Shown here: positions 6,240 to 44,519 of the stretch, piece after piece
Layout: every line of letters begins with the position of its first letter
Position numbering within the stretch: the first letter of the stretch is position 1
Sequence record: NC_052658.1
DNA: 64,000 nt
From: Escherichia phage nepoznato
Direction: 5' to 3' (one strand)
Made by a program: the position numbers and the translations under genes
The notes under the pieces: model-generated
Told to the model about the DNA's origin: nothing
Database searches by the model: none
The model's input: the letters and a program-made list of their open reading frames with translations, nothing else

Positions 6240-6979
6240 TCATACATAGAGAAATTACTGTTAAAAGCGATCAAGATCTTTTTATAATTGGAGATCTACA
6301 CGGTTGTTATAATTTGTATGAAAAAGGAAAGGCAAAGTTAGGTATCCGAGATACAGATGTAGTTGTATCTTTAGGAGATCTTACTGACCGTGGAAAGCAA
6401 AACTTTCGTTGTGTTTTAGAATTTACTCGTAAACACAATCGCTACGCTATTCGTGGAAATCATGAAGACATGATGATTAAAGGTATGCTGGAAGGAGATC
6501 GTAGCTACTTCGAGTGTTGGTATCAAAATGGAGGATATACAGTCCTTGAAGAATGTGGTGAAGAAGGAGCTACAGCCTTAGCAATGATGACAGAAGATTT
6601 ACCTGTTGTTCTCATTGTTAACTACAGAGGCATGAAACTTGCGTTTATTCATGGTGGGTATCCATCTTCTTTGGAATATCTCCCTGTAACAGATATTCCA
6701 GAATACACTTTGAAGATGACAAAAACACAGGAAAACCGTTTTGCTGAAGCACTTATGTGGGACAGAGATATGGTGGACTGTGCTAAAGAGGGAATGAAAC
6801 TTCCTGTTGTGATGGGTGTGGACTATGTGTTTCATGGACACTCTTATGTAAAAACACCTATTATCAATGCGAATCGTGTTTATATGGATACTGGATCTGT
6901 GTTCAATAATAACTTAACATTTGCTTATTTCGATATGGACGGTGGTCTTCAATTTTATTCAACTCTTGAGGAGGATTAA
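6236..6979 (+). CDS. Ser/Thr protein phosphatase (calcineurin-like metallophosphoesterase)
   Basis: Metallophosphatase motifs GDLHGCY, GDLTDRG, GNHED, GHS in order; GTG start overlapping upstream stop. Confidence 0.8.
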   Translation: MIIHREITVKSDQDLFIIGDLHGCYNLYEKGKAKLGIRDTDVVVSLGDLTDRGKQNFRCVLEFTRKHNRYAIRGNHEDMMIKGMLEGDRSYFECWYQNGGYTVLEECGEEGATALAMMTEDLPVVLIVNYRGMKLAFIHGGYPSSLEYLPVTDIPEYTLKMTKTQENRFAEALMWDRDMVDCAKEGMKLPVVMGVDYVFHGHSYVKTPIINANRVYMDTGSVFNNNLTFAYFDMDGGLQFYSTLEED

Positions 6980-7287
6980 TGTATAAGATTACAATTATTC
7001 AAAGTGTAGGTAATATCCGTAAAGAAGTTATCTTAGAAACAGAAGATGTTAATCTTGTTCGTGAGATTGTTTTTAAGGAAGATAACCTGCAAACTGTAGA
7101 ATCGGATGCACCGAATCTTATGGTGGATCAAGAATATTCTGAACTTCGTCGTATTTTTGAAGAGATTCAGAAGAAAGAAACACAACCTACCATAAAACCT
7201 TTTGGTCCTTATGATCCGAGCAATCCTAGCAGTCCTTGGATCATGAGAAATACGGAACCCTATACACCTTTTGAAATTACTTGTTGA
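6979..7287 (+). CDS. hypothetical protein
   Basis: 102-aa ORF with RBS GAGGAGG. Confidence 0.45.
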   Translation: MYKITIIQSVGNIRKEVILETEDVNLVREIVFKEDNLQTVESDAPNLMVDQEYSELRRIFEEIQKKETQPTIKPFGPYDPSNPSSPWIMRNTEPYTPFEITC

Positions 7288-21943: not shown

Positions 21944-22621
21944 CTATTTAATGTTCAATCTAGCACACAAGCGAGAAACAGTTTTAGCATCCCACTTACC
22001 ACCACGTGCTGTTGCGATTTTCTTACTATTGAATTTTTCAGCAATAGTTTTGTAAGGTGTATTTAAATCTCTAAGGATTTCTAAGCGTTCACGGAATGTC
22101 TCTGCAAAAGCATCTGCTTTAACAGAATTGTATTCCATTTTTCCTTTTCTACGTGCAGCGGCAGTTTTAGGATTAGCACTGCCTAATAAAACACCTTTGC
22201 TTTTTGCTACAGCAAGACCCTTTTTAATACGATCAGCAATACCTCTGACTTCTTGTTCAGCCAAAACAGACAGAAGCTGTATAACCATTTTATCTGCGTC
22301 TGGCATGATGGCTATCTTAACATCGATCATTTCTAGAAGAGTTGCTACGGAGGCGTTGTTACGACCCAAGCGGTCAACTTTAGCTACCAATAAAGTTGCT
22401 CCGGTAGCTTTACACATTTCAACCGCTTTAACCAGTTCCTTACGTTGCTTCCAATCGCCCTTACCAGAATAGTATTCAGAAAATTGACCAATAACTTCAG
22501 CATCAGGCACAGAGTCTAAGAAGTAACGGATATCGTTCTCTTGGCTCTCCATACCATATTGTGCCTCACCTTTTTTCTGTTTAGAAAGACGACTGTAAAC
22601 AACAAACTTTTTCATAACCAC
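21944..22621 (-). CDS. small serine recombinase (resolvase/invertase family)
   Basis: N-terminal VVYSRLS catalytic-Ser region, VAKVDRLGRN, C-terminal HTH-like tail; about 225 aa. Confidence 0.8.
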   Translation of the reverse strand: MVMKKFVVYSRLSKQKKGEAQYGMESQENDIRYFLDSVPDAEVIGQFSEYYSGKGDWKQRKELVKAVEMCKATGATLLVAKVDRLGRNNASVATLLEMIDVKIAIMPDADKMVIQLLSVLAEQEVRGIADRIKKGLAVAKSKGVLLGSANPKTAAARRKGKMEYNSVKADAFAETFRERLEILRDLNTPYKTIAEKFNSKKIATARGGKWDAKTVSRLCARLNIK

Positions 22622-31617: not shown

Positions 31618-31955
31618 GATAATCTCCTCTCATCATTAGCCATCTTTCATGGCAATCATCAATCACCAACATCATACGATCAATCTTCGGCAATTACAAT
31701 CGAATTATCATAGGGGATTCCTATCAATTATCCCATATATACTGATTATTTTTGACACCCCACTCTTGTATAAAAAGTAACCCAAAATATCTACGGGGAG
31801 AGATTATTTCGGGACACCCTGTTTCATGGCAATCATGGCAAGAATATCTAATAGAATCAATATCATATGGCAAAAATCATGGCGTATACGTAAGAAGTGC
31901 TTAACGCGAATTTTCGGGCCGTCAGGTCCACGCAGCGACAATTCCCAAATATCAT

Positions 31956-31979
31956 GCGAATGAGAATAATTATCATTCG
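31956..31979. promoter_or_regulatory. Fur-box-like palindrome
   Basis: GCGAATGAGAATAATTATCATTCG; GATAAT/ATTATC hexamer arrangement. Confidence 0.3.
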
Positions 31980-32137
31980 TATTCAATGACTTATGCAAGG
32001 CTCATGCCAACATAGCGACAAGGTGGGCCACTTGATTATAAATCACACAAACACTTATTTATCAATGGTTTGGCAACTTCATCATATGACGGAACATTGT
32101 CAACTGATCCCGCTCATGACAAGCAGACTATTATTTA

Positions 32138-32156
32138 TATGAGAATGATTATTATT
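32138..32156. promoter_or_regulatory. Fur-box-like element
   Basis: ATGAGAATGATTATTATT. Confidence 0.25.
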
Positions 32157-32213
32157 TAAACGTTTATTAACATAAAAACTAAAATAAATCAAGATTATTC
32201 TGATTTTATTTAC

Positions 32214-32410
32214 GTTTAAGAGAAGGTGCTCAACATCCTACCGGATCGCCGTTGGCAATCCTGCGGATATTTACGCCCCCATGATTAAGGTTTATCTCTT
32301 TTCTTAGTGCTCAACATATCGCGTAGCGATAGTATTCGCCCCCGTGATATTTGCTCTTCTCTTAGTGCTCAACATTCCCGCCTGTGGCGGTAACATTTCG
32401 CCCCCAAAAT
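32214..32410. repeat. three direct iterons: CTTAGTGCTCAACAT box, variable short hairpin, (A)TTTCGCCCCC box
   Basis: Boxes near 32225, 32304 and 32363, each followed 30-40 bp later by CGCCCCC; spacing about 60-70 bp. Confidence 0.6.
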
Positions 32411-32453
32411 TATTGACTTTTATTCTATTATGTGCATAGTGTGCAATGTATCG

Positions 32454-32472
32454 GAATGATGATAATCATCCT
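32454..32472. promoter_or_regulatory. Fur-box-like palindrome
   Basis: GGAATGATGATAATCATCC (GATGAT-A-ATCATC). Confidence 0.3.
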
Positions 32473-32779
32473 CCCATTGCCCCCATAATTATTGCCATGC
32501 TAATTGTTTCCTTATGTAATTATCACAATGACTATTGTTATTGCGCTAATGTTATGATCTTGGTAATTACATATAATGCTAATAATAAGCCAGCGCAATA
32601 AGTGTAAGCGTCATTACGCTTGCAATTATTGCAAGCTACGCAGTAACAAGAAATAACCATCACCGATGGTTATGATTGTTGGGGTGTAGTTGGCTTATTA
32701 TTAGCTCGCTACGTGTCCGGCGTAGCGTGCTAATGATGAGTCTGTAAATGATTCATTGTGTAATGATTTCATTCAGGCA

Positions 32780-32995
32780 CTATTTTGCTAATAGTTATTA
32801 TTTTAATGGTTTCGTTTGTTATTGTTCGTTAGTTGGTTGTTTTGTCGTGTTATCGTTATCTTGCTTAGTATTCATCATGGTTTGATTGTTTGTCGTTATC
32901 AATCATCTTGCTATTATTCCTTTGATTATGATTAGTTTGCTTATTGTTTTATGTTGTTTGTTGGTTAGTTGTTGCGAACTATTATCAACATTATA
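32780..32995. repeat. T/G-skewed low-complexity tract (GTT/TTG-rich, nearly A-free on plus strand)
   Basis: About 200 bp of gtttgttattgttcgttagttggttgttttgtcg... with extreme strand asymmetry. Confidence 0.5.
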
Positions 32996-33030
32996 ATTAT
33001 GCGCTTATATTGCATAGATAATCATGGGTA

Positions 33031-33050
33031 GATGATAATGGTTATCATTG
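33031..33050. promoter_or_regulatory. Fur-box-like element
   Basis: GATGATAATGGTTATCATTG. Confidence 0.25.
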
Positions 33051-33271
33051 CACTAGAAAGGAGGTAAAAGGGTGTTTTTGATGGTTTGTTGTTGGTTGTT
33101 GATCGATTTTAACCGCTCTAAATGGCTCTCTAACAGCCTGTAACCCTGGGAGGTATGGTTATTCGTTTGCTGGTTGATTAGCTCGATACCGCGATTTATT
33201 CAGTTTTGTTCTGTGTCGGTTTTTCATAGGCGGAAGCTATCAATATTGTTCGGGCAAAAATAAAGGGCGCT

Positions 33272-41062: not shown

Positions 41063-41171
41063 TCACTTTTTCAATCTTTTTTATTTTCTTTTTGCTTGCT
41101 ATATATAAAAGAAAGGGCTATCATCTTTCTACCGCGCCAACCTGGGCGCACATCAAAGAAAGGGCGATACC

Positions 41172-41438
41172 ATGACAAATACTACATTACACCTTATGCA
41201 CTCATTGGGCTGGCAAGGCGGCACGGTGCACCAGGTAGCAAGCGCAACGGGCTTAAAGGTTGAAACCGTTCTCAACCTATCAGATTATAAGGTCGAGGAT
41301 AGTTATCAATTACAAAGTTACACGGGCGGTTTTACCTGGGCGCGTGAAGGTGGGAAAGAAAGCAATATACCACATTGGGGAAAAGGTGATATTCATTTTT
41401 GGCTAGGTGTCCTGACCTGGCAAGAAAACAAAAAATAA
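41172..41438 (+). CDS. hypothetical protein
   Basis: 88-aa plus-strand ORF diverging from the minus array. Confidence 0.45.
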   Translation: MTNTTLHLMHSLGWQGGTVHQVASATGLKVETVLNLSDYKVEDSYQLQSYTGGFTWAREGGKESNIPHWGKGDIHFWLGVLTWQENKK

Positions 41439-41440
41439 TC

Positions 41441-41469
41441 TTGACAAGCCCAGGGATCGGGCTTATACT
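41441..41469 (+). promoter_or_regulatory. sigma70-type promoter with PeSL-like leader, no downstream ORF
   Basis: TTGACA, 17 bp, TATACT, then GTTTTACATACAG and GC-rich hairpins; no plus ORF of 20 aa or more before 42.2 kb. Confidence 0.5.
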
Positions 41470-41477
41470 GTTTTACA

Positions 41478-41600
41478 TACAGAAGAGGAAGCGCCACCCC
41501 CACGGCGTAAAGGCGGGGCTAACATACCAGGGGCACTGGTTGGAAGGTTGATCGCCGGTAGGCTGGGCGCTATATATTTGTAAAGAAATGTAAAGATAAA
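41478..41600 (+). ncRNA. candidate structured non-coding transcript or leader
   Basis: About 80-nt GC-rich segment flanked by GCGCC...GGCGC with internal hairpins, downstream of the consensus promoter; not tRNA-like. Confidence 0.25.
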
Positions 41601-41699
41601 ATAATCGCTTGCTTTCCTGGCTGGATCTGTTATTCTTATTACATGGCGAGGGGACACGGGAGCGCGAGACAAACACCGCCCCTGCGCGTCATTCTCTAA

Positions 41700-41720
41700 A
41701 TGAGAATGATTATCATTTAC
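41700..41720. promoter_or_regulatory. Fur-box-like palindrome (AATGAT-T-ATCATT)
   Basis: GAGAATGATTATCATTTAC; perfect 6-1-6 inverted repeat. Confidence 0.35.
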
Positions 41721-41759
41721 TTTATTAAATAAGAATCAATCTCATTTATAAACCTAAAT

Positions 41760-41778
41760 GCGAATCATTATCATTTGC
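41760..41778. promoter_or_regulatory. Fur-box-like element
   Basis: GCGAATCATTATCATTTGC. Confidence 0.3.
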
Positions 41779-42159
41779 ATTTCCACATGAGAACTCTTCT
41801 CATTCCCATCTGCATAAATTTTTGTAAACTTTAAATTTTGCTTTTGTACTTTCATTTTTGTAAAAGCAAAAAAACTTTAAATACTGTGGGCGCGCAAAAT
41901 TTTTAAAATTTTCCTTGACTTTTGAGTTTTGTTTTGTATCTGACATTTTAAGATAATTTTCCTAAACTTTAAATTTTGGTTTTCAACTTTCACTTTTGTA
42001 AATTCTTAAAAAGTTTAAATAATTTGAGGGATTTTTGAGATAATGGATAGTGGGAATTTGATATAACCTTTAATCTTATTAGTAGACCTTCAGGAACCCA
42101 CCTAGATCGAATCCTGGTGATGCAAACTGAAAAAGACAAGGGTTTGTATAGGACAAAAT

Positions 42160-42195
42160 AATAGGCTCTCTACGGTGCTGTAGGAGCCTTATTTC
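42160..42195 (+). terminator. long hairpin with U-tract at convergent junction
   Basis: AGGCTCTCTAC...GTAGGAGCCT stem followed by TATTTCT. Confidence 0.5.
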
Positions 42196-42244
42196 TGTGC
42201 TACAAAGTGACACCTTTGTTCTAAAAATGAAAAAAGTTAAAATA

Positions 42245-42787
42245 TCACAAATATCGTCTTTGCGGTATTTTGTCTGGGAAAAGTATTTCGATCAGTTTGT
42301 TATGATATTTACCTAAAAGATTTTGCCCTTTCCAGTTGACCGGATTTAGCACCCCTGGTTCATACATCCCCATTCCAATTCCGTAAACCTTATCGTAGGG
42401 GCTTGCTTCAACAAACGTTTTGTATTGGTAAAGGTGTAAGTCTGCATACAAATCTGGATTCTGTACATATTTCAAGCATAAACCTCGCATAACAATACGC
42501 TCACGGTTCTCTTCCCATACGTTGTTATCAAAATCCGACACTGCCCTACCCATACGTTTGTAATAAGCTTGGATCTTCTCATCTTTCCGTATCAAACTAT
42601 GAGTCAGAATAGCCTGTGCAGTGTTGTGGTCATTAAAAAGCAAAGCTTTACGCCACATCATATATTGTTCGACACAATTAAATGTTTGATTGTAACCTGG
42701 TTCGGTTTCTGTAAAGGGTGCAATATACCAATTACTAAACACATCTTTATGTGAAAAGAAGAATACATAATCATCAGTTATTCGCAT
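42245..42787 (-). CDS. NADAR-domain (YbiA-like, DUF1768) protein
   Basis: FFFSHKDVFSNWY, EQYMMWRKA, YGIGMG and WKGQNLLGKYHNKL blocks matching the NADAR/YbiA family. Confidence 0.7.
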   Translation of the reverse strand: MRITDDYVFFFSHKDVFSNWYIAPFTETEPGYNQTFNCVEQYMMWRKALLFNDHNTAQAILTHSLIRKDEKIQAYYKRMGRAVSDFDNNVWEENRERIVMRGLCLKYVQNPDLYADLHLYQYKTFVEASPYDKVYGIGMGMYEPGVLNPVNWKGQNLLGKYHNKLIEILFPDKIPQRRYL

Positions 42788-42998: not shown

Positions 42999-43341
42999 AA
43001 ACTGCGTCTGCGTCGATGAGTTTGTGTTTGTTGTTCCGCATGTAGTCTAAGATAAGTAGACGTTTATTGTATCTGGAGAGATTATGACCCTCTTTTCCGC
43101 CATAGTCAAAATATTTTGCAAGATCTTTACACTCAAACAAAATCAGTTCGGGAGTTTCTTCACACTGGTCTGTCTGGTACACTTGACGAATGATCATGTA
43201 TACATCATCGTCTTCCGCTAAATGCTCTACTGGTCCACATCCAGCAGGAACAAATTCATAGTCCCATCGGATCAGATGTTTCTCTACTGCTTCAAAGAAA
43301 TCCATCCTTTCGTTGCGCATAATTTGAACGTCAACTAACAT
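42976..43341 (-). CDS. hypothetical protein
   Basis: 121-aa ORF. Confidence 0.45.
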   Translation of the reverse strand: MLVDVQIMRNERMDFFEAVEKHLIRWDYEFVPAGCGPVEHLAEDDDVYMIIRQVYQTDQCEETPELILFECKDLAKYFDYGGKEGHNLSRYNKRLLILDYMRNNKHKLIDADAVYGYWWMD

Positions 43342-44519
43342 GTTTCCTCCTGTAATGTTCCACCATAAAGTTTATAAATGTTTTGTATTGATGCCATGCA
43401 AGATAACTCCGCTGTCTCTGTGTAGCCATCTGGCATAGCATATTTGCTCACTGCTTCCGTGTGAAGGACACGCTTACAACGCTTTTCTGCATCTTTGCAT
43501 TGCTTCACAGTAGGGAAGTGCCACACTTGGCCCTGTTTCATAGTAAACACATTACGACTATTTTGTTCTTTGATACGGCGATTACTATTATTAGCAATAC
43601 CAAACTTCAGTGCACAGATAATATCTTGCTCATCGTAAATATAATTAATGTAGGCTTGTTGTTGATTTTTGTTAGCACACTGCGGACAACCTTGTCCTAT
43701 GTTTAAAAGGTTGTTTGCAGTTCCTTTTTGTTCCCCATGACTCTTACATACATATTTAAACTTACCTATAGAAGATGGTTTGGTAATCCATCCTATCCAA
43801 ACATACCCTTTCTTTTCTATTTTCTTTCTTACTTTATACGTAATCTGTTCCGCTGTATACCTATAAGATGCAGAGCAACGGCAGGGTAAGTGTCCATATT
43901 TAAGATTGCTACGCGTCATATAAAACTTACCATCACATAGTCCAGCTTTAACATATTCATCATGAGAACAAACAGGACACTGAACCATCCATACCGGATC
44001 ACACCCTTTACGTTCCCCCGTGTTGGTGAAAATAGTGCCTTCCTTAAACTTCCCTGTAGAAAAGAAATCTGCAATATGTTGATCGTCGGGTATTGTTTGT
44101 GACCTCCTTGTGTTCTCATACCTACATATAAGACAACCACTGCCATGTTTAAAACTATCAAAACTACATGTATTCCATTCATGACCATACCTACAACGTA
44201 GCATCATTTTCGTACGCGCACCTTTAAACGGTTCTACGATACCTATGATGGTAATCCCCTTAGCTTCCGCTATTGGTTTACATTCAGTAAGGTATGTTTT
44301 TAAATCTTTAATTTGACCTGCACACATAGGACAACCACTACCACGTTTAAAACTGTTAATACTTGTAGTATCCCATTTATAACCACAATGACACAACAAA
44401 TCAAGTTTTGTATTAACCCCTTTCCATTCTCCCGTCCATCCTAAGATTTGGATTTGCTTACTCTCTGCTATGGGTTGACACTCTTCTTTATATTGTTCCC
44501 ATGATTTTGGTGCTGCCAT
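43335..44519 (-). CDS. Cys-rich protein with three tandem zinc-ribbon-like repeats
   Basis: Three repeats of GW.G......L.C.CG..W.T....F..GSGC..C in 394 aa; function unknown, possibly nuclease-associated. Confidence 0.5.
   Translation of the reverse strand: MAAPKSWEQYKEECQPIAESKQIQILGWTGEWKGVNTKLDLLCHCGYKWDTTSINSFKRGSGCPMCAGQIKDLKTYLTECKPIAEAKGITIIGIVEPFKGARTKMMLRCRYGHEWNTCSFDSFKHGSGCLICRYENTRRSQTIPDDQHIADFFSTGKFKEGTIFTNTGERKGCDPVWMVQCPVCSHDEYVKAGLCDGKFYMTRSNLKYGHLPCRCSASYRYTAEQITYKVRKKIEKKGYVWIGWITKPSSIGKFKYVCKSHGEQKGTANNLLNIGQGCPQCANKNQQQAYINYIYDEQDIICALKFGIANNSNRRIKEQNSRNVFTMKQGQVWHFPTVKQCKDAEKRCKRVLHTEAVSKYAMPDGYTETAELSCMASIQNIYKLYGGTLQEETC

Follow-up and report, generated by a model that had tools for sequence, protein, structure and literature searches.

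In the primary origin of phage T7 two tandem promoters (phi1.1A/1.1B) precede an AT-rich region; in oriF and oriG of phage T4 a promoter is paired with a DNA-unwinding element and an R-loop serves as primer, and in T4 oriE early-promoter RNA is combined with repeats. We examine here a locus of related layout in Escherichia phage nepoznato (sequence record NC_052658.1), which lies within a stretch of 64,000 nucleotides (the window; all positions count from its first letter) as the gap between an 88-aa open reading frame (ORF) and a gene for a NADAR-domain protein (Table 1). The original prediction, made from the letters of positions 41441-42195, saw there a promoter firing into an AT-rich repeat tract and offered it as a candidate R-loop origin or long non-coding RNA. 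We find tandem promoters, a conserved leader segment, predicted sites for the host regulators CpxR and Fur and easily melted DNA with repeats, arranged in an order that is kept across phage subfamilies. We read the locus as a cis-acting control region, most likely a transcription-activated replication origin wired to host regulators and gated by host Fur, and give this reading a probability of roughly 0.35.

The genome paper of the related phage rV5 draws the region as a grey 'non-coding' box, and skew analysis of that genome did not locate an origin (PMC3606486). Public annotations of the gap hold nothing but a 38-bp 'repeat_region' and a terminator, and our literature searches found no origins or transcriptomes of these phages. 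In T5-like phages the matching sequence lies in the untranslated 'Repeat Region 3' of the terminal repeat, which carries the injection stop signal and whose palindromes and repeats are unexplained (Davison, bioRxiv 10.1101/866236). A promoter-fed, AT-rich, non-coding control region is a known form of candidate origin; apparently undescribed in the literature searched are the composition of the present locus, its spread over three phage groups and its predicted wiring to Fur and a CpxR-type regulator.

Conserved architecture of the locus

Positions 41100-42300 are 98% identical to the Phapecoctavirus genomes DIJ07P2, SKA64 and anhysbys, and the window is assigned to that genus, as part of a phAPEC8-like E. 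coli myovirus (~150 kb; subfamily Stephanstirmvirinae). When 41441-42200 was used as query in a sensitive DNA search, 360 phage records were returned, in which the extent of the match differs by group. Phapecoctavirus genomes match over the whole length of the query, phi92-like phages over its first 468 nt, many Vequintavirinae genera over nt ~32-340 at 70-77% identity (including Mydovirus, Certrevirus and Seunavirus, with Klebsiella, Cronobacter, Salmonella and Pectobacterium as hosts), rV5-like Vequintavirus genomes over nt 159-312, and T5-like phages over nt 288-342 only, 55 nt at 84-86% identity that comprise just the 21-bp palindrome family described below. A non-coding gap of 0.8-1.2 kb stands at the same place in all relatives examined (phi92, FBKp34, CR8, SSE121, SSBI34, rV5 and K45PH128C2). 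As aligned, the architecture spans Stephanstirmvirinae and Vequintavirinae and many of their genera, and since it is non-coding DNA that is kept across subfamilies, selection must be maintaining it.

Its non-coding character needs a correction to the original prediction, which had seen no open reading frame reaching 20 aa: the ORF list has ten mechanical entries of 20-69 aa that overlap the tract. None of these offers a + strand ATG, and frameshifts or stops disrupt every one in phi92-like relatives, most of them already in close relatives, so that the tract is effectively non-coding. With none conserved, the small ORFs were rejected as genes.

The promoter on which the original prediction was built holds up. 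P1 is the best + strand promoter match within 38.5-44.5 kb (6 kb), and in 23 related loci, distant relatives included, its hexamers are kept (TTGACA, TTGACG or TTGCAA, then TATACT, TATAAT or TATATT) and its spacer varies. The hairpin in that spacer likewise differs in sequence among relatives and stays self-complementary; it looks like the terminator of the upstream 88-aa ORF. A second promoter, P2, was overlooked in the original prediction, as were the CpxR-type box, the Fur-box array, the near-invariant 82-nt segment that we call module A and the lineage-specific repeats, and it is on these parts that the mechanism most likely turns; the four copies of an 11-mer and the rank of the tract as least stable DNA had gone unnoticed too. 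P2 is weak in this phage, where it is absent from the consensus-scan hits for the window, and clearer in Vequintavirinae, where the aligned sequence reads TTGCAA-17-TATATT and the alignment suggests a third promoter past the Fur boxes.

Downstream, the GC content falls from 0.50-0.56 over 41450-41700 to 0.21-0.30 over 41700-42100, the lowest value over 200 bp being 22%. By nearest-neighbour energies no part of the 64 kb is less stable, whether taken in 200-bp windows (at 41896) or in 300-bp windows (at 41723), at ~3.5 standard deviations from the mean; the tract begins ~220 nt past the P1 start and ~55 nt past that of P2. An AT-rich tract with direct repeats had been described and is present; the repeats are a 72-nt pair and the four palindromes. 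Within it the 11-mer AAACTTTAAAT occurs at 41826, 41872, 41964 and 42010 (the last with one mismatch), and all three exact copies of the 64 kb lie inside the tract. Relatives carry at the same place three 60-70-bp repeats at 63-78-bp spacing, of different, lineage-specific sequences. The repeats are thus lineage-specific and the Fur and CpxR-type boxes are not, as would be expected of repeats read by a phage protein and boxes read by host proteins. The GC skew is positive at 41250-41650, which fits transcription of the + strand. Together the tandem promoters, the least stable tract and the positive skew fit either an origin or a long non-coding transcript.

The strong hairpin reported for the end of the tract was also found (Table 1). 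It is stable on both strands and has A-rich and T-rich flanks, which makes it bidirectional; it carries a terminator annotation in phage ASO2A and would terminate both the non-coding transcripts that run rightward and the NADAR gene, which runs leftward. The only other such site before 42164 is a weak, AU-rich, terminator-like hairpin at 41688-41710.

Ahead of P2 lies GTAAAGAAATGTAAA, the only GTAAA-N5-GTAAA in the 64 kb. The published CpxR consensus is GTAAA(N)4-8GTAAA (PMC9603713), and the form of the phage box equals that of the box in the E. coli cpxP promoter, GTAAAACAACGTAAAG. Its half-sites are invariant and its spacer variable in most aligned lineages; the exceptions are one metagenomic lineage (L130, L132 and L139), with ATAAA as second half-site, and L143, with one change just past the first. 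The box stands ~57 nt from the P2 start here and 47 nt in clades without a 10-bp insertion between box and -35, so that helical phase is kept. Because OmpR-family sites are similar and the orientation of the box relative to the promoter is opposite to that at cpxP, the regulator is not nameable with certainty, and we treat the box as a predicted CpxR-type site.

The four palindromes between P2 and the repeats closely resemble operators of the iron regulator Fur. A position weight matrix built solely from 46 distinct phage palindromes was run over 50 kb of E. coli K-12 (600-650 kb), and its top six hits all fell in the Fur-regulated divergent promoters fepA/fes, fepB/entC and fepD/entS, which make up 729 bp of the sequence scanned. 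Measured against the classical Fur consensus GATAATGATAATCATTATC, box 1 (41702) matches at 16/19 positions and is the best 19-mer of the window, and the sites at 41696, 41754 and 41760 match at 14/19, as compared with 13-16/19 for the ent/fep sites of E. coli. In two pairs, 41696/41702 and 41754/41760, a shift of 6 bp separates the members, and a 6-bp overlap is the pattern of Fur site clusters (PMC2189734). Elsewhere in the window there are four more boxes (at least 16 bits) against 0.13 expected. The distance from the P2 start to box 1 is near-constant in all clades, and the number of boxes per locus ranges from one (SSE121) to five (phi92). At the level of sequence the palindromes are Fur-box look-alikes, which Fur may bind. 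Since the consensus is the same in phages with diverged proteins, the T5-like phages among them, a host protein is the more economical reader. In the literature that we searched, Fur boxes are reported neither for these nor for other lytic phages.

In the T5-like Escherichia phage HildyBeyeler this untranslated part of the terminal repeat (2040-2620) looks like a cluster of sites for host global regulators: it has at least seven Fur-like palindromes, together with three perfect DnaA boxes, TGTGGATAA, at 2288, 2300 and 2361 and a LexA-type box, TACTGTATATTTATACAGTA, at 2260-2279, which fits the LexA consensus, CTGT-N8-ACAG. DnaA boxes have been described in T5 (bioRxiv 10.1101/866236); the T5 literature that we found discusses these and does not discuss Fur-like or LexA-type sites.

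Table 1. Features of the locus and its nearest neighbours (positions in the window)
Feature	Position	Strand	Remarks	Basis
88-aa gene	41172..41438	+	directly upstream; sole rightward gene within leftward block	ORF list
Predicted promoter P1, TTGACA-17-TATACT	41441..41469	+	inferred start ~41476-41477	11/12 consensus
GC hairpin in P1 spacer	41446..41464	+		-8.8 kcal/mol
Module A, 82 nt, CGCCACCCCCACGGCGTAAAGGCGGGGCTAAC...GGTTGGAAGGTTGATCGCCGGTAG	41480..41561	+	near-invariant; central variable hairpin	
CpxR/OmpR-family-type box GTAAAGAAATGTAAA, GTAAA-N5-GTAAA	41580..41594	+	centre ~-57 from P2 start	
Predicted promoter P2, TTGCTT-16-TATTCT	41610..41637	+	inferred start ~41644	alignment
Module B leader, conserved GAGACAAACACC (41666-41677)	41644..41690	+		alignments
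Four 21-bp palindromes, consensus AAATGAGAATnATTCTCATTT	41698..41805		at 41698, 41727, 41756 and 41785; 29-bp spacing	
AT-rich tract	41700..42095		70-79% A+T in 100-bp windows; easiest-melting DNA	
Direct repeats	41817..42026	+	72-nt units at 41817 and 41955	82% identity
Bidirectional terminator hairpin	42164..42188			-15.3 kcal/mol on +, -16.0 on -
NADAR-domain protein gene	42245..42787	-	just right of locus	PF08719, E 2e-35
394-aa protein gene	43335..44519	-	CapR-homology domains and treble-clef zinc finger	PHROG 'endonuclease'

A candidate origin and its competitors

As an origin the locus would work as follows. Host RNA polymerase would start at P1, a strong early promoter, and at P2, the latter with a CpxR-type activator box at ~-57, and both transcripts would run rightward, against the surrounding genes, through leaders formed by modules A and B. 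They would then meet the Fur operator array at its fixed distance (+55) from the P2 start, where iron-loaded Fur (Fe-Fur) might block or shape read-through, or keep H-NS off. Transcripts that read through would enter the tract of lineage-specific repeats, where the DNA melts more easily than anywhere else in the 64 kb, and opening of this tract, or an RNA-DNA hybrid within it, would give the replisome access; the bidirectional terminator would end the unit. Fur operators placed between promoters and an unwinding tract would, if this is right, be a new feature of an origin.

Several observations weigh against this. GC skew had to be discarded as an origin marker, for it follows gene orientation only, as it does in rV5. 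Neither a DnaA box (up to one mismatch) nor an IHF consensus was found in 41400-42250, and the A-tracts show no 10-11-bp periodicity in the tract. No initiator is recognisable, the adjacent 88-aa protein having no DNA-binding fold match and some clades lacking it or having another ORF in its place. With 46-72 bp the repeats are longer than classical iterons (17-22 bp), and there are few of them. Blocking of read-through by Fe-Fur would hinder replication in iron-rich medium, which is awkward for an origin, and conservation as extreme as that of module A is met more typically in a functional RNA than in the leader of an origin.

Module A is near-invariant, ~90% identical between subfamilies whose proteins have strongly diverged, with a central hairpin that varies in length and sequence. 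A covariance model finds it at 98.7 bits as a single copy in the window and one copy per genome, with a weak hit to a diverged second module behind an extra promoter in Pectobacterium phage P7_Pc; in rV5 and the T5-like phages the model found nothing. RNAalifold, applied to 29 distinct aligned sequences, gives three helices. Helices 1 and 2 are invariant and hence without covariation signal, and helix 3 alone is supported: three of its pairs have changes on both sides (one being A-U in 17 sequences and G-C in 12), its covariation score was reached by 0 of 500 shuffles, and in slid controls its pairing collapses from 99% to 18-49%. In SSBI34 the distal stem is flipped (ACC...GGU to GGU...ACC), and an invariant G-U pair would pair on the + strand only. 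Changes of hairpin length by other than multiples of three and a 1-nt indel mean that module A is not coding; for the same kind of reason (single-base indels and non-3n length changes) we rejected a small protein hidden in it, in a frame that ends at a conserved TAG in some clades.

The 'GC-rich structured segment' of the original prediction survives in part: the segment is GC-rich and has one covarying helix, but it folds no more stably than shuffled sequence, with z = -1.0 on the + strand and -0.6 on the - strand for the minimum free energy over 41477-41722. Folding energy is also a weak guide to the strand, + being the more stable in 18 of 23 copies of module A and 9 of 14 of module B. Rfam 15, including a permissive search on 251 nt, gave no hit near gathering score for the window or any of five relatives, and ARAGORN found no tRNA or tmRNA in the locus copies. 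Module A has no homologue in E. coli, and a host origin of the locus RNA was dropped for lack of a match. A Dehalococcoidia sequence sharing the 20-nt core was set aside (12 bits, E 0.4, with the covariance model), a hit at chance level given the ~4 chance hits that we estimate ourselves for the 596 Gb searched. An apparent Proteobacteria hit in a metagenome-assembled genome was a Phapecoctavirus contig, and a looser DNA pattern run against viral contigs gave mostly chance hits. We regard module A as a candidate new structured RNA outside the Rfam families. Module B was tried as a conserved hairpin and rejected, as changes in its 3' arm are uncompensated in several lineages; rV5 lacks module A and has two copies of a unit made up of promoter, module B and palindrome.

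Some copies of the locus carry insertions or unusual annotations. In the viral contig L020 module A is separated from the CpxR-type box by an inserted 197-aa ORF (6420-7013, - strand), which comes with a ribosome-binding site of its own and matches nothing in Pfam, and in P7_Pc (L126, 1590-1780) a 190-bp insertion brings the extra consensus promoter and the diverged copy of module A mentioned above; both insertions appear to be mobile. The record of Klebsiella phage vB_Kpn_K45PH128C2 (L004) annotates tRNA-Lys, tRNA-Ile and tRNA-Met at 2074-2769, of which tRNA-Ile and tRNA-Met are placed on the opposite strand of modules A and B. Tested as tRNA remnants, these were rejected: ARAGORN detects none within the 5.3-kb stretch of this phage or in any locus copy, and the annotations therefore look wrong.

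The main competing reading, held tentatively and with little less probability, is that the products of the locus are non-coding RNAs in their own right, P1 yielding a structured RNA with module A as its core and P2 a short RNA with module B. Such RNAs might be trans-acting regulators, sponges or protein-binding RNAs, with Fur and the CpxR-type regulator setting their level by iron and envelope state; they would be ~240 and 70 nt long if stopped by the 41688-41710 hairpin or by bound Fur, and ~700 and 550 nt if continued to the hairpin at 42164-42188. The conservation of module A between subfamilies, its variable hairpin, its compensatory helix, the flip in SSBI34 and the + strand G-U pair all argue for this, as does the fact that module A has a strong promoter of its own and no coding potential. 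The toleration of insertions between the modules (L020, P7_Pc) suggests independent units, and the unit of promoter, module B and Fur box is duplicated in rV5. Host small RNA genes are typically wired to single regulators, as RyhB is to Fur, and we count this on the same side. On the other hand, Rfam gives no match at any threshold and E. coli no homologue, folding energies are ordinary and their strand asymmetry weak, helices 1 and 2 never vary and so lend no covariation support, and the stems of module B are inconsistently compensated. Neither module is followed by a canonical GC-rich terminator with a U-run, and the conserved downstream repeats and AT tract would be left unexplained.

A role for the DNA itself as effector seems unlikely. 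On a genome that rises to hundreds of copies the boxes might act as a Fur decoy that derepresses host iron uptake for the benefit of phage iron-dependent enzymes (an anaerobic ribonucleotide reductase gene lies in the window), or, with Fe-Fur bound beside the AT-rich tract, as a boundary that would protect the early region from silencing by H-NS, like that at E. coli ftnA. Since multicopy Fur boxes derepress the regulon in the classical Fur titration assay (PMC2189734), a decoy is physically plausible, and the excess of near-consensus boxes points the same way: there are four at the locus besides the four elsewhere in the window, they score at least as high as Fur-regulated ent/fep sites, and the T5-like repeat region has at least seven beside its DnaA and LexA-type boxes. 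Yet the single box of SSE121 would make a poor sponge, the fixed position of the first box relative to P2 points to local regulation rather than bulk titration, and titration would explain neither the modules nor the promoters and repeats.

A role as signal for genome ends, packaging or DNA entry, like that of the T5 injection-stop region, is very improbable for the locus. The T5-like palindromes do lie in Repeat Region 3, which is cis-acting and tied to two-step DNA injection, and two public records start or end within the locus. However, the record of phiWec189 (L147/L148, LC739538.1) repeats its first ~147 bases at its end, with the junction in duplicated Fur-like boxes, and for that reason we take it as an assembly overlap in a 'complete genome' record, not a physical terminus. 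In most records the locus is internal, it shares no DnaA boxes with T5, and no homologues of T5 pre-early genes flank it; a search of the locus for LexA sites was also negative. Decaying or selfish filler, made of promoter-terminator cassette remnants and dead genes, hardly deserves more credence: the neighbouring early genes are indeed separated by many such cassettes, insertions occur within the locus and one record annotates tRNAs there, but between subfamilies part order, spacing and sequence are kept to a much greater extent than the flanking genes are, no copy has a tRNA according to ARAGORN, and invariant half-sites around varying spacers imply selection on binding sites.

The origin, RNA, decoy, terminus and filler readings are not mutually exclusive. 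A wider suggestion, which we hold with more doubt than the possibility of functional RNAs, is that large virulent enterobacterial phages of three families (rV5-, phi92/phAPEC8- and T5-like) keep non-coding loci of high-affinity sites for host global regulators, Fur and CpxR-type here and Fur, DnaA and LexA-type in T5, by which origin firing or early transcription would be coupled to the iron, envelope and DNA-damage state of the host, the host proteins serving as sensors and architectural factors. If so, the palindromes of the T5 injection-stop region, a region unexplained for decades, would be Fur operators. The rV5-, phi92- and phAPEC8-like phages are much used in phage therapy work, and the region in them is without assigned origin or function; a conserved 800-bp element with predicted host inputs is directly testable. 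Should Fur bind, phage development would be tied to iron availability, which differs sharply between broth and infected host, and this could explain condition-dependent phage efficacy.

Gene surroundings and a second gap

Apart from the 88-aa gene, the neighbours of the locus are small leftward early genes, each with its own promoters and terminators. The 88-aa protein belongs to phrog_19316 (function unknown) and has no match in a Pfam search. Homologues stand at the same position in phi92 (gp224), FBKp34 and SSBI34; Mydovirus and Seunavirus have an unrelated 60-aa ORF there instead, and rV5-like and Certrevirus phages are without the gene. An AlphaFold2 model (pLDDT 95) has five helices and, compared with the PDB, no significant structural neighbour and no DNA-binding fold match, so that a helix-turn-helix-like stretch in the protein is an impression only. 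The gene would be tied to the locus by synteny only. NADAR enzymes undo ADP-ribosylation, and the NADAR gene on the other side may have an anti-defence role. The gene for a 394-aa protein lies farther to the right (Table 1). At 21944-22621 (- strand) a 225-aa ORF encodes a serine-recombinase (Resolvase N-terminal) domain (E 5e-18), in a phage regarded as virulent.

A second large gap of ~1.6 kb, at 31650-33270, is without annotation in eight related records. It holds three further strong Fur-like palindromes (31958, 32137 and 33030), a threefold direct repeat 'CTTAGTGCTCAACAT...CGCCCCC' at ~32290-32410 and, at 32125, the least stable 100-bp stretch of the window, and may be a second locus of the same kind. 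Among the records that match the first locus are some named for Campylobacter, Acinetobacter and Pseudomonas, the listed Pseudomonas and Acinetobacter records at 79-94% identity; these host names are probably mistaken, or else come from contaminated preparations.

Comparison with described systems

With the T7 primary origin and with T4 oriF and oriG the locus shares promoters, here two predicted ones in tandem, that lead into an easily melted AT tract with no gene behind. To this extent the layout of a promoter before an unwinding-type tract, as originally predicted, stands, being conserved and containing the least stable 200 and 300 bp. The analogy with T4 is loose, however, as the promoters of the locus are of the host sigma-70 early type, neither dependent on a phage polymerase nor MotA-dependent middle promoters. 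Further differences are the predicted Fur operator array between promoters and AT tract and the conserved leader segment, which has no counterpart in those origins. T4 oriE and the iteron origins (lambda ori, plasmid oriV) resemble it in having direct repeats beside an AT-rich region and a small gene adjacent, and the repeats of the locus differ by lineage as if read by a co-evolving phage protein. Unlike those of iteron origins, its units are 46-72 bp long with an 11-mer core in four copies, DnaA and IHF sites are lacking, and the adjacent protein shows no DNA-binding fold.

T4-type PeSL cassettes also pair an early promoter and a stem-loop, and cassettes of this kind stand around the small early genes nearby; at the locus, in contrast, the hairpin is part of the promoter spacer and no gene is driven from the promoter. 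T5 Repeat Region 3 has the same palindromes and is likewise a large, conserved, untranslated, repeat-rich region whose function is not understood. It differs in lying in the long terminal repeat and in having DnaA boxes, a LexA-type box and nine other direct repeats; the locus studied here is internal and is without these, and in their place are modules A and B and the CpxR-type box.

The palindromes themselves find their closest likeness in Fur-controlled host promoters (ent/fep, iucA, and ftnA with its anti-H-NS action) and in small RNA genes of the ryhB type, with which they share the operator, the 6-bp-shifted overlaps and the clustering of sites (PMC2189734). In the phage, however, the boxes stand 55-160 nt downstream of the start, not over the -35 and -10 elements, and follow one another evenly at 29 bp instead of overlapping by 6 bp, and the genome that carries them is that of a virulent phage.

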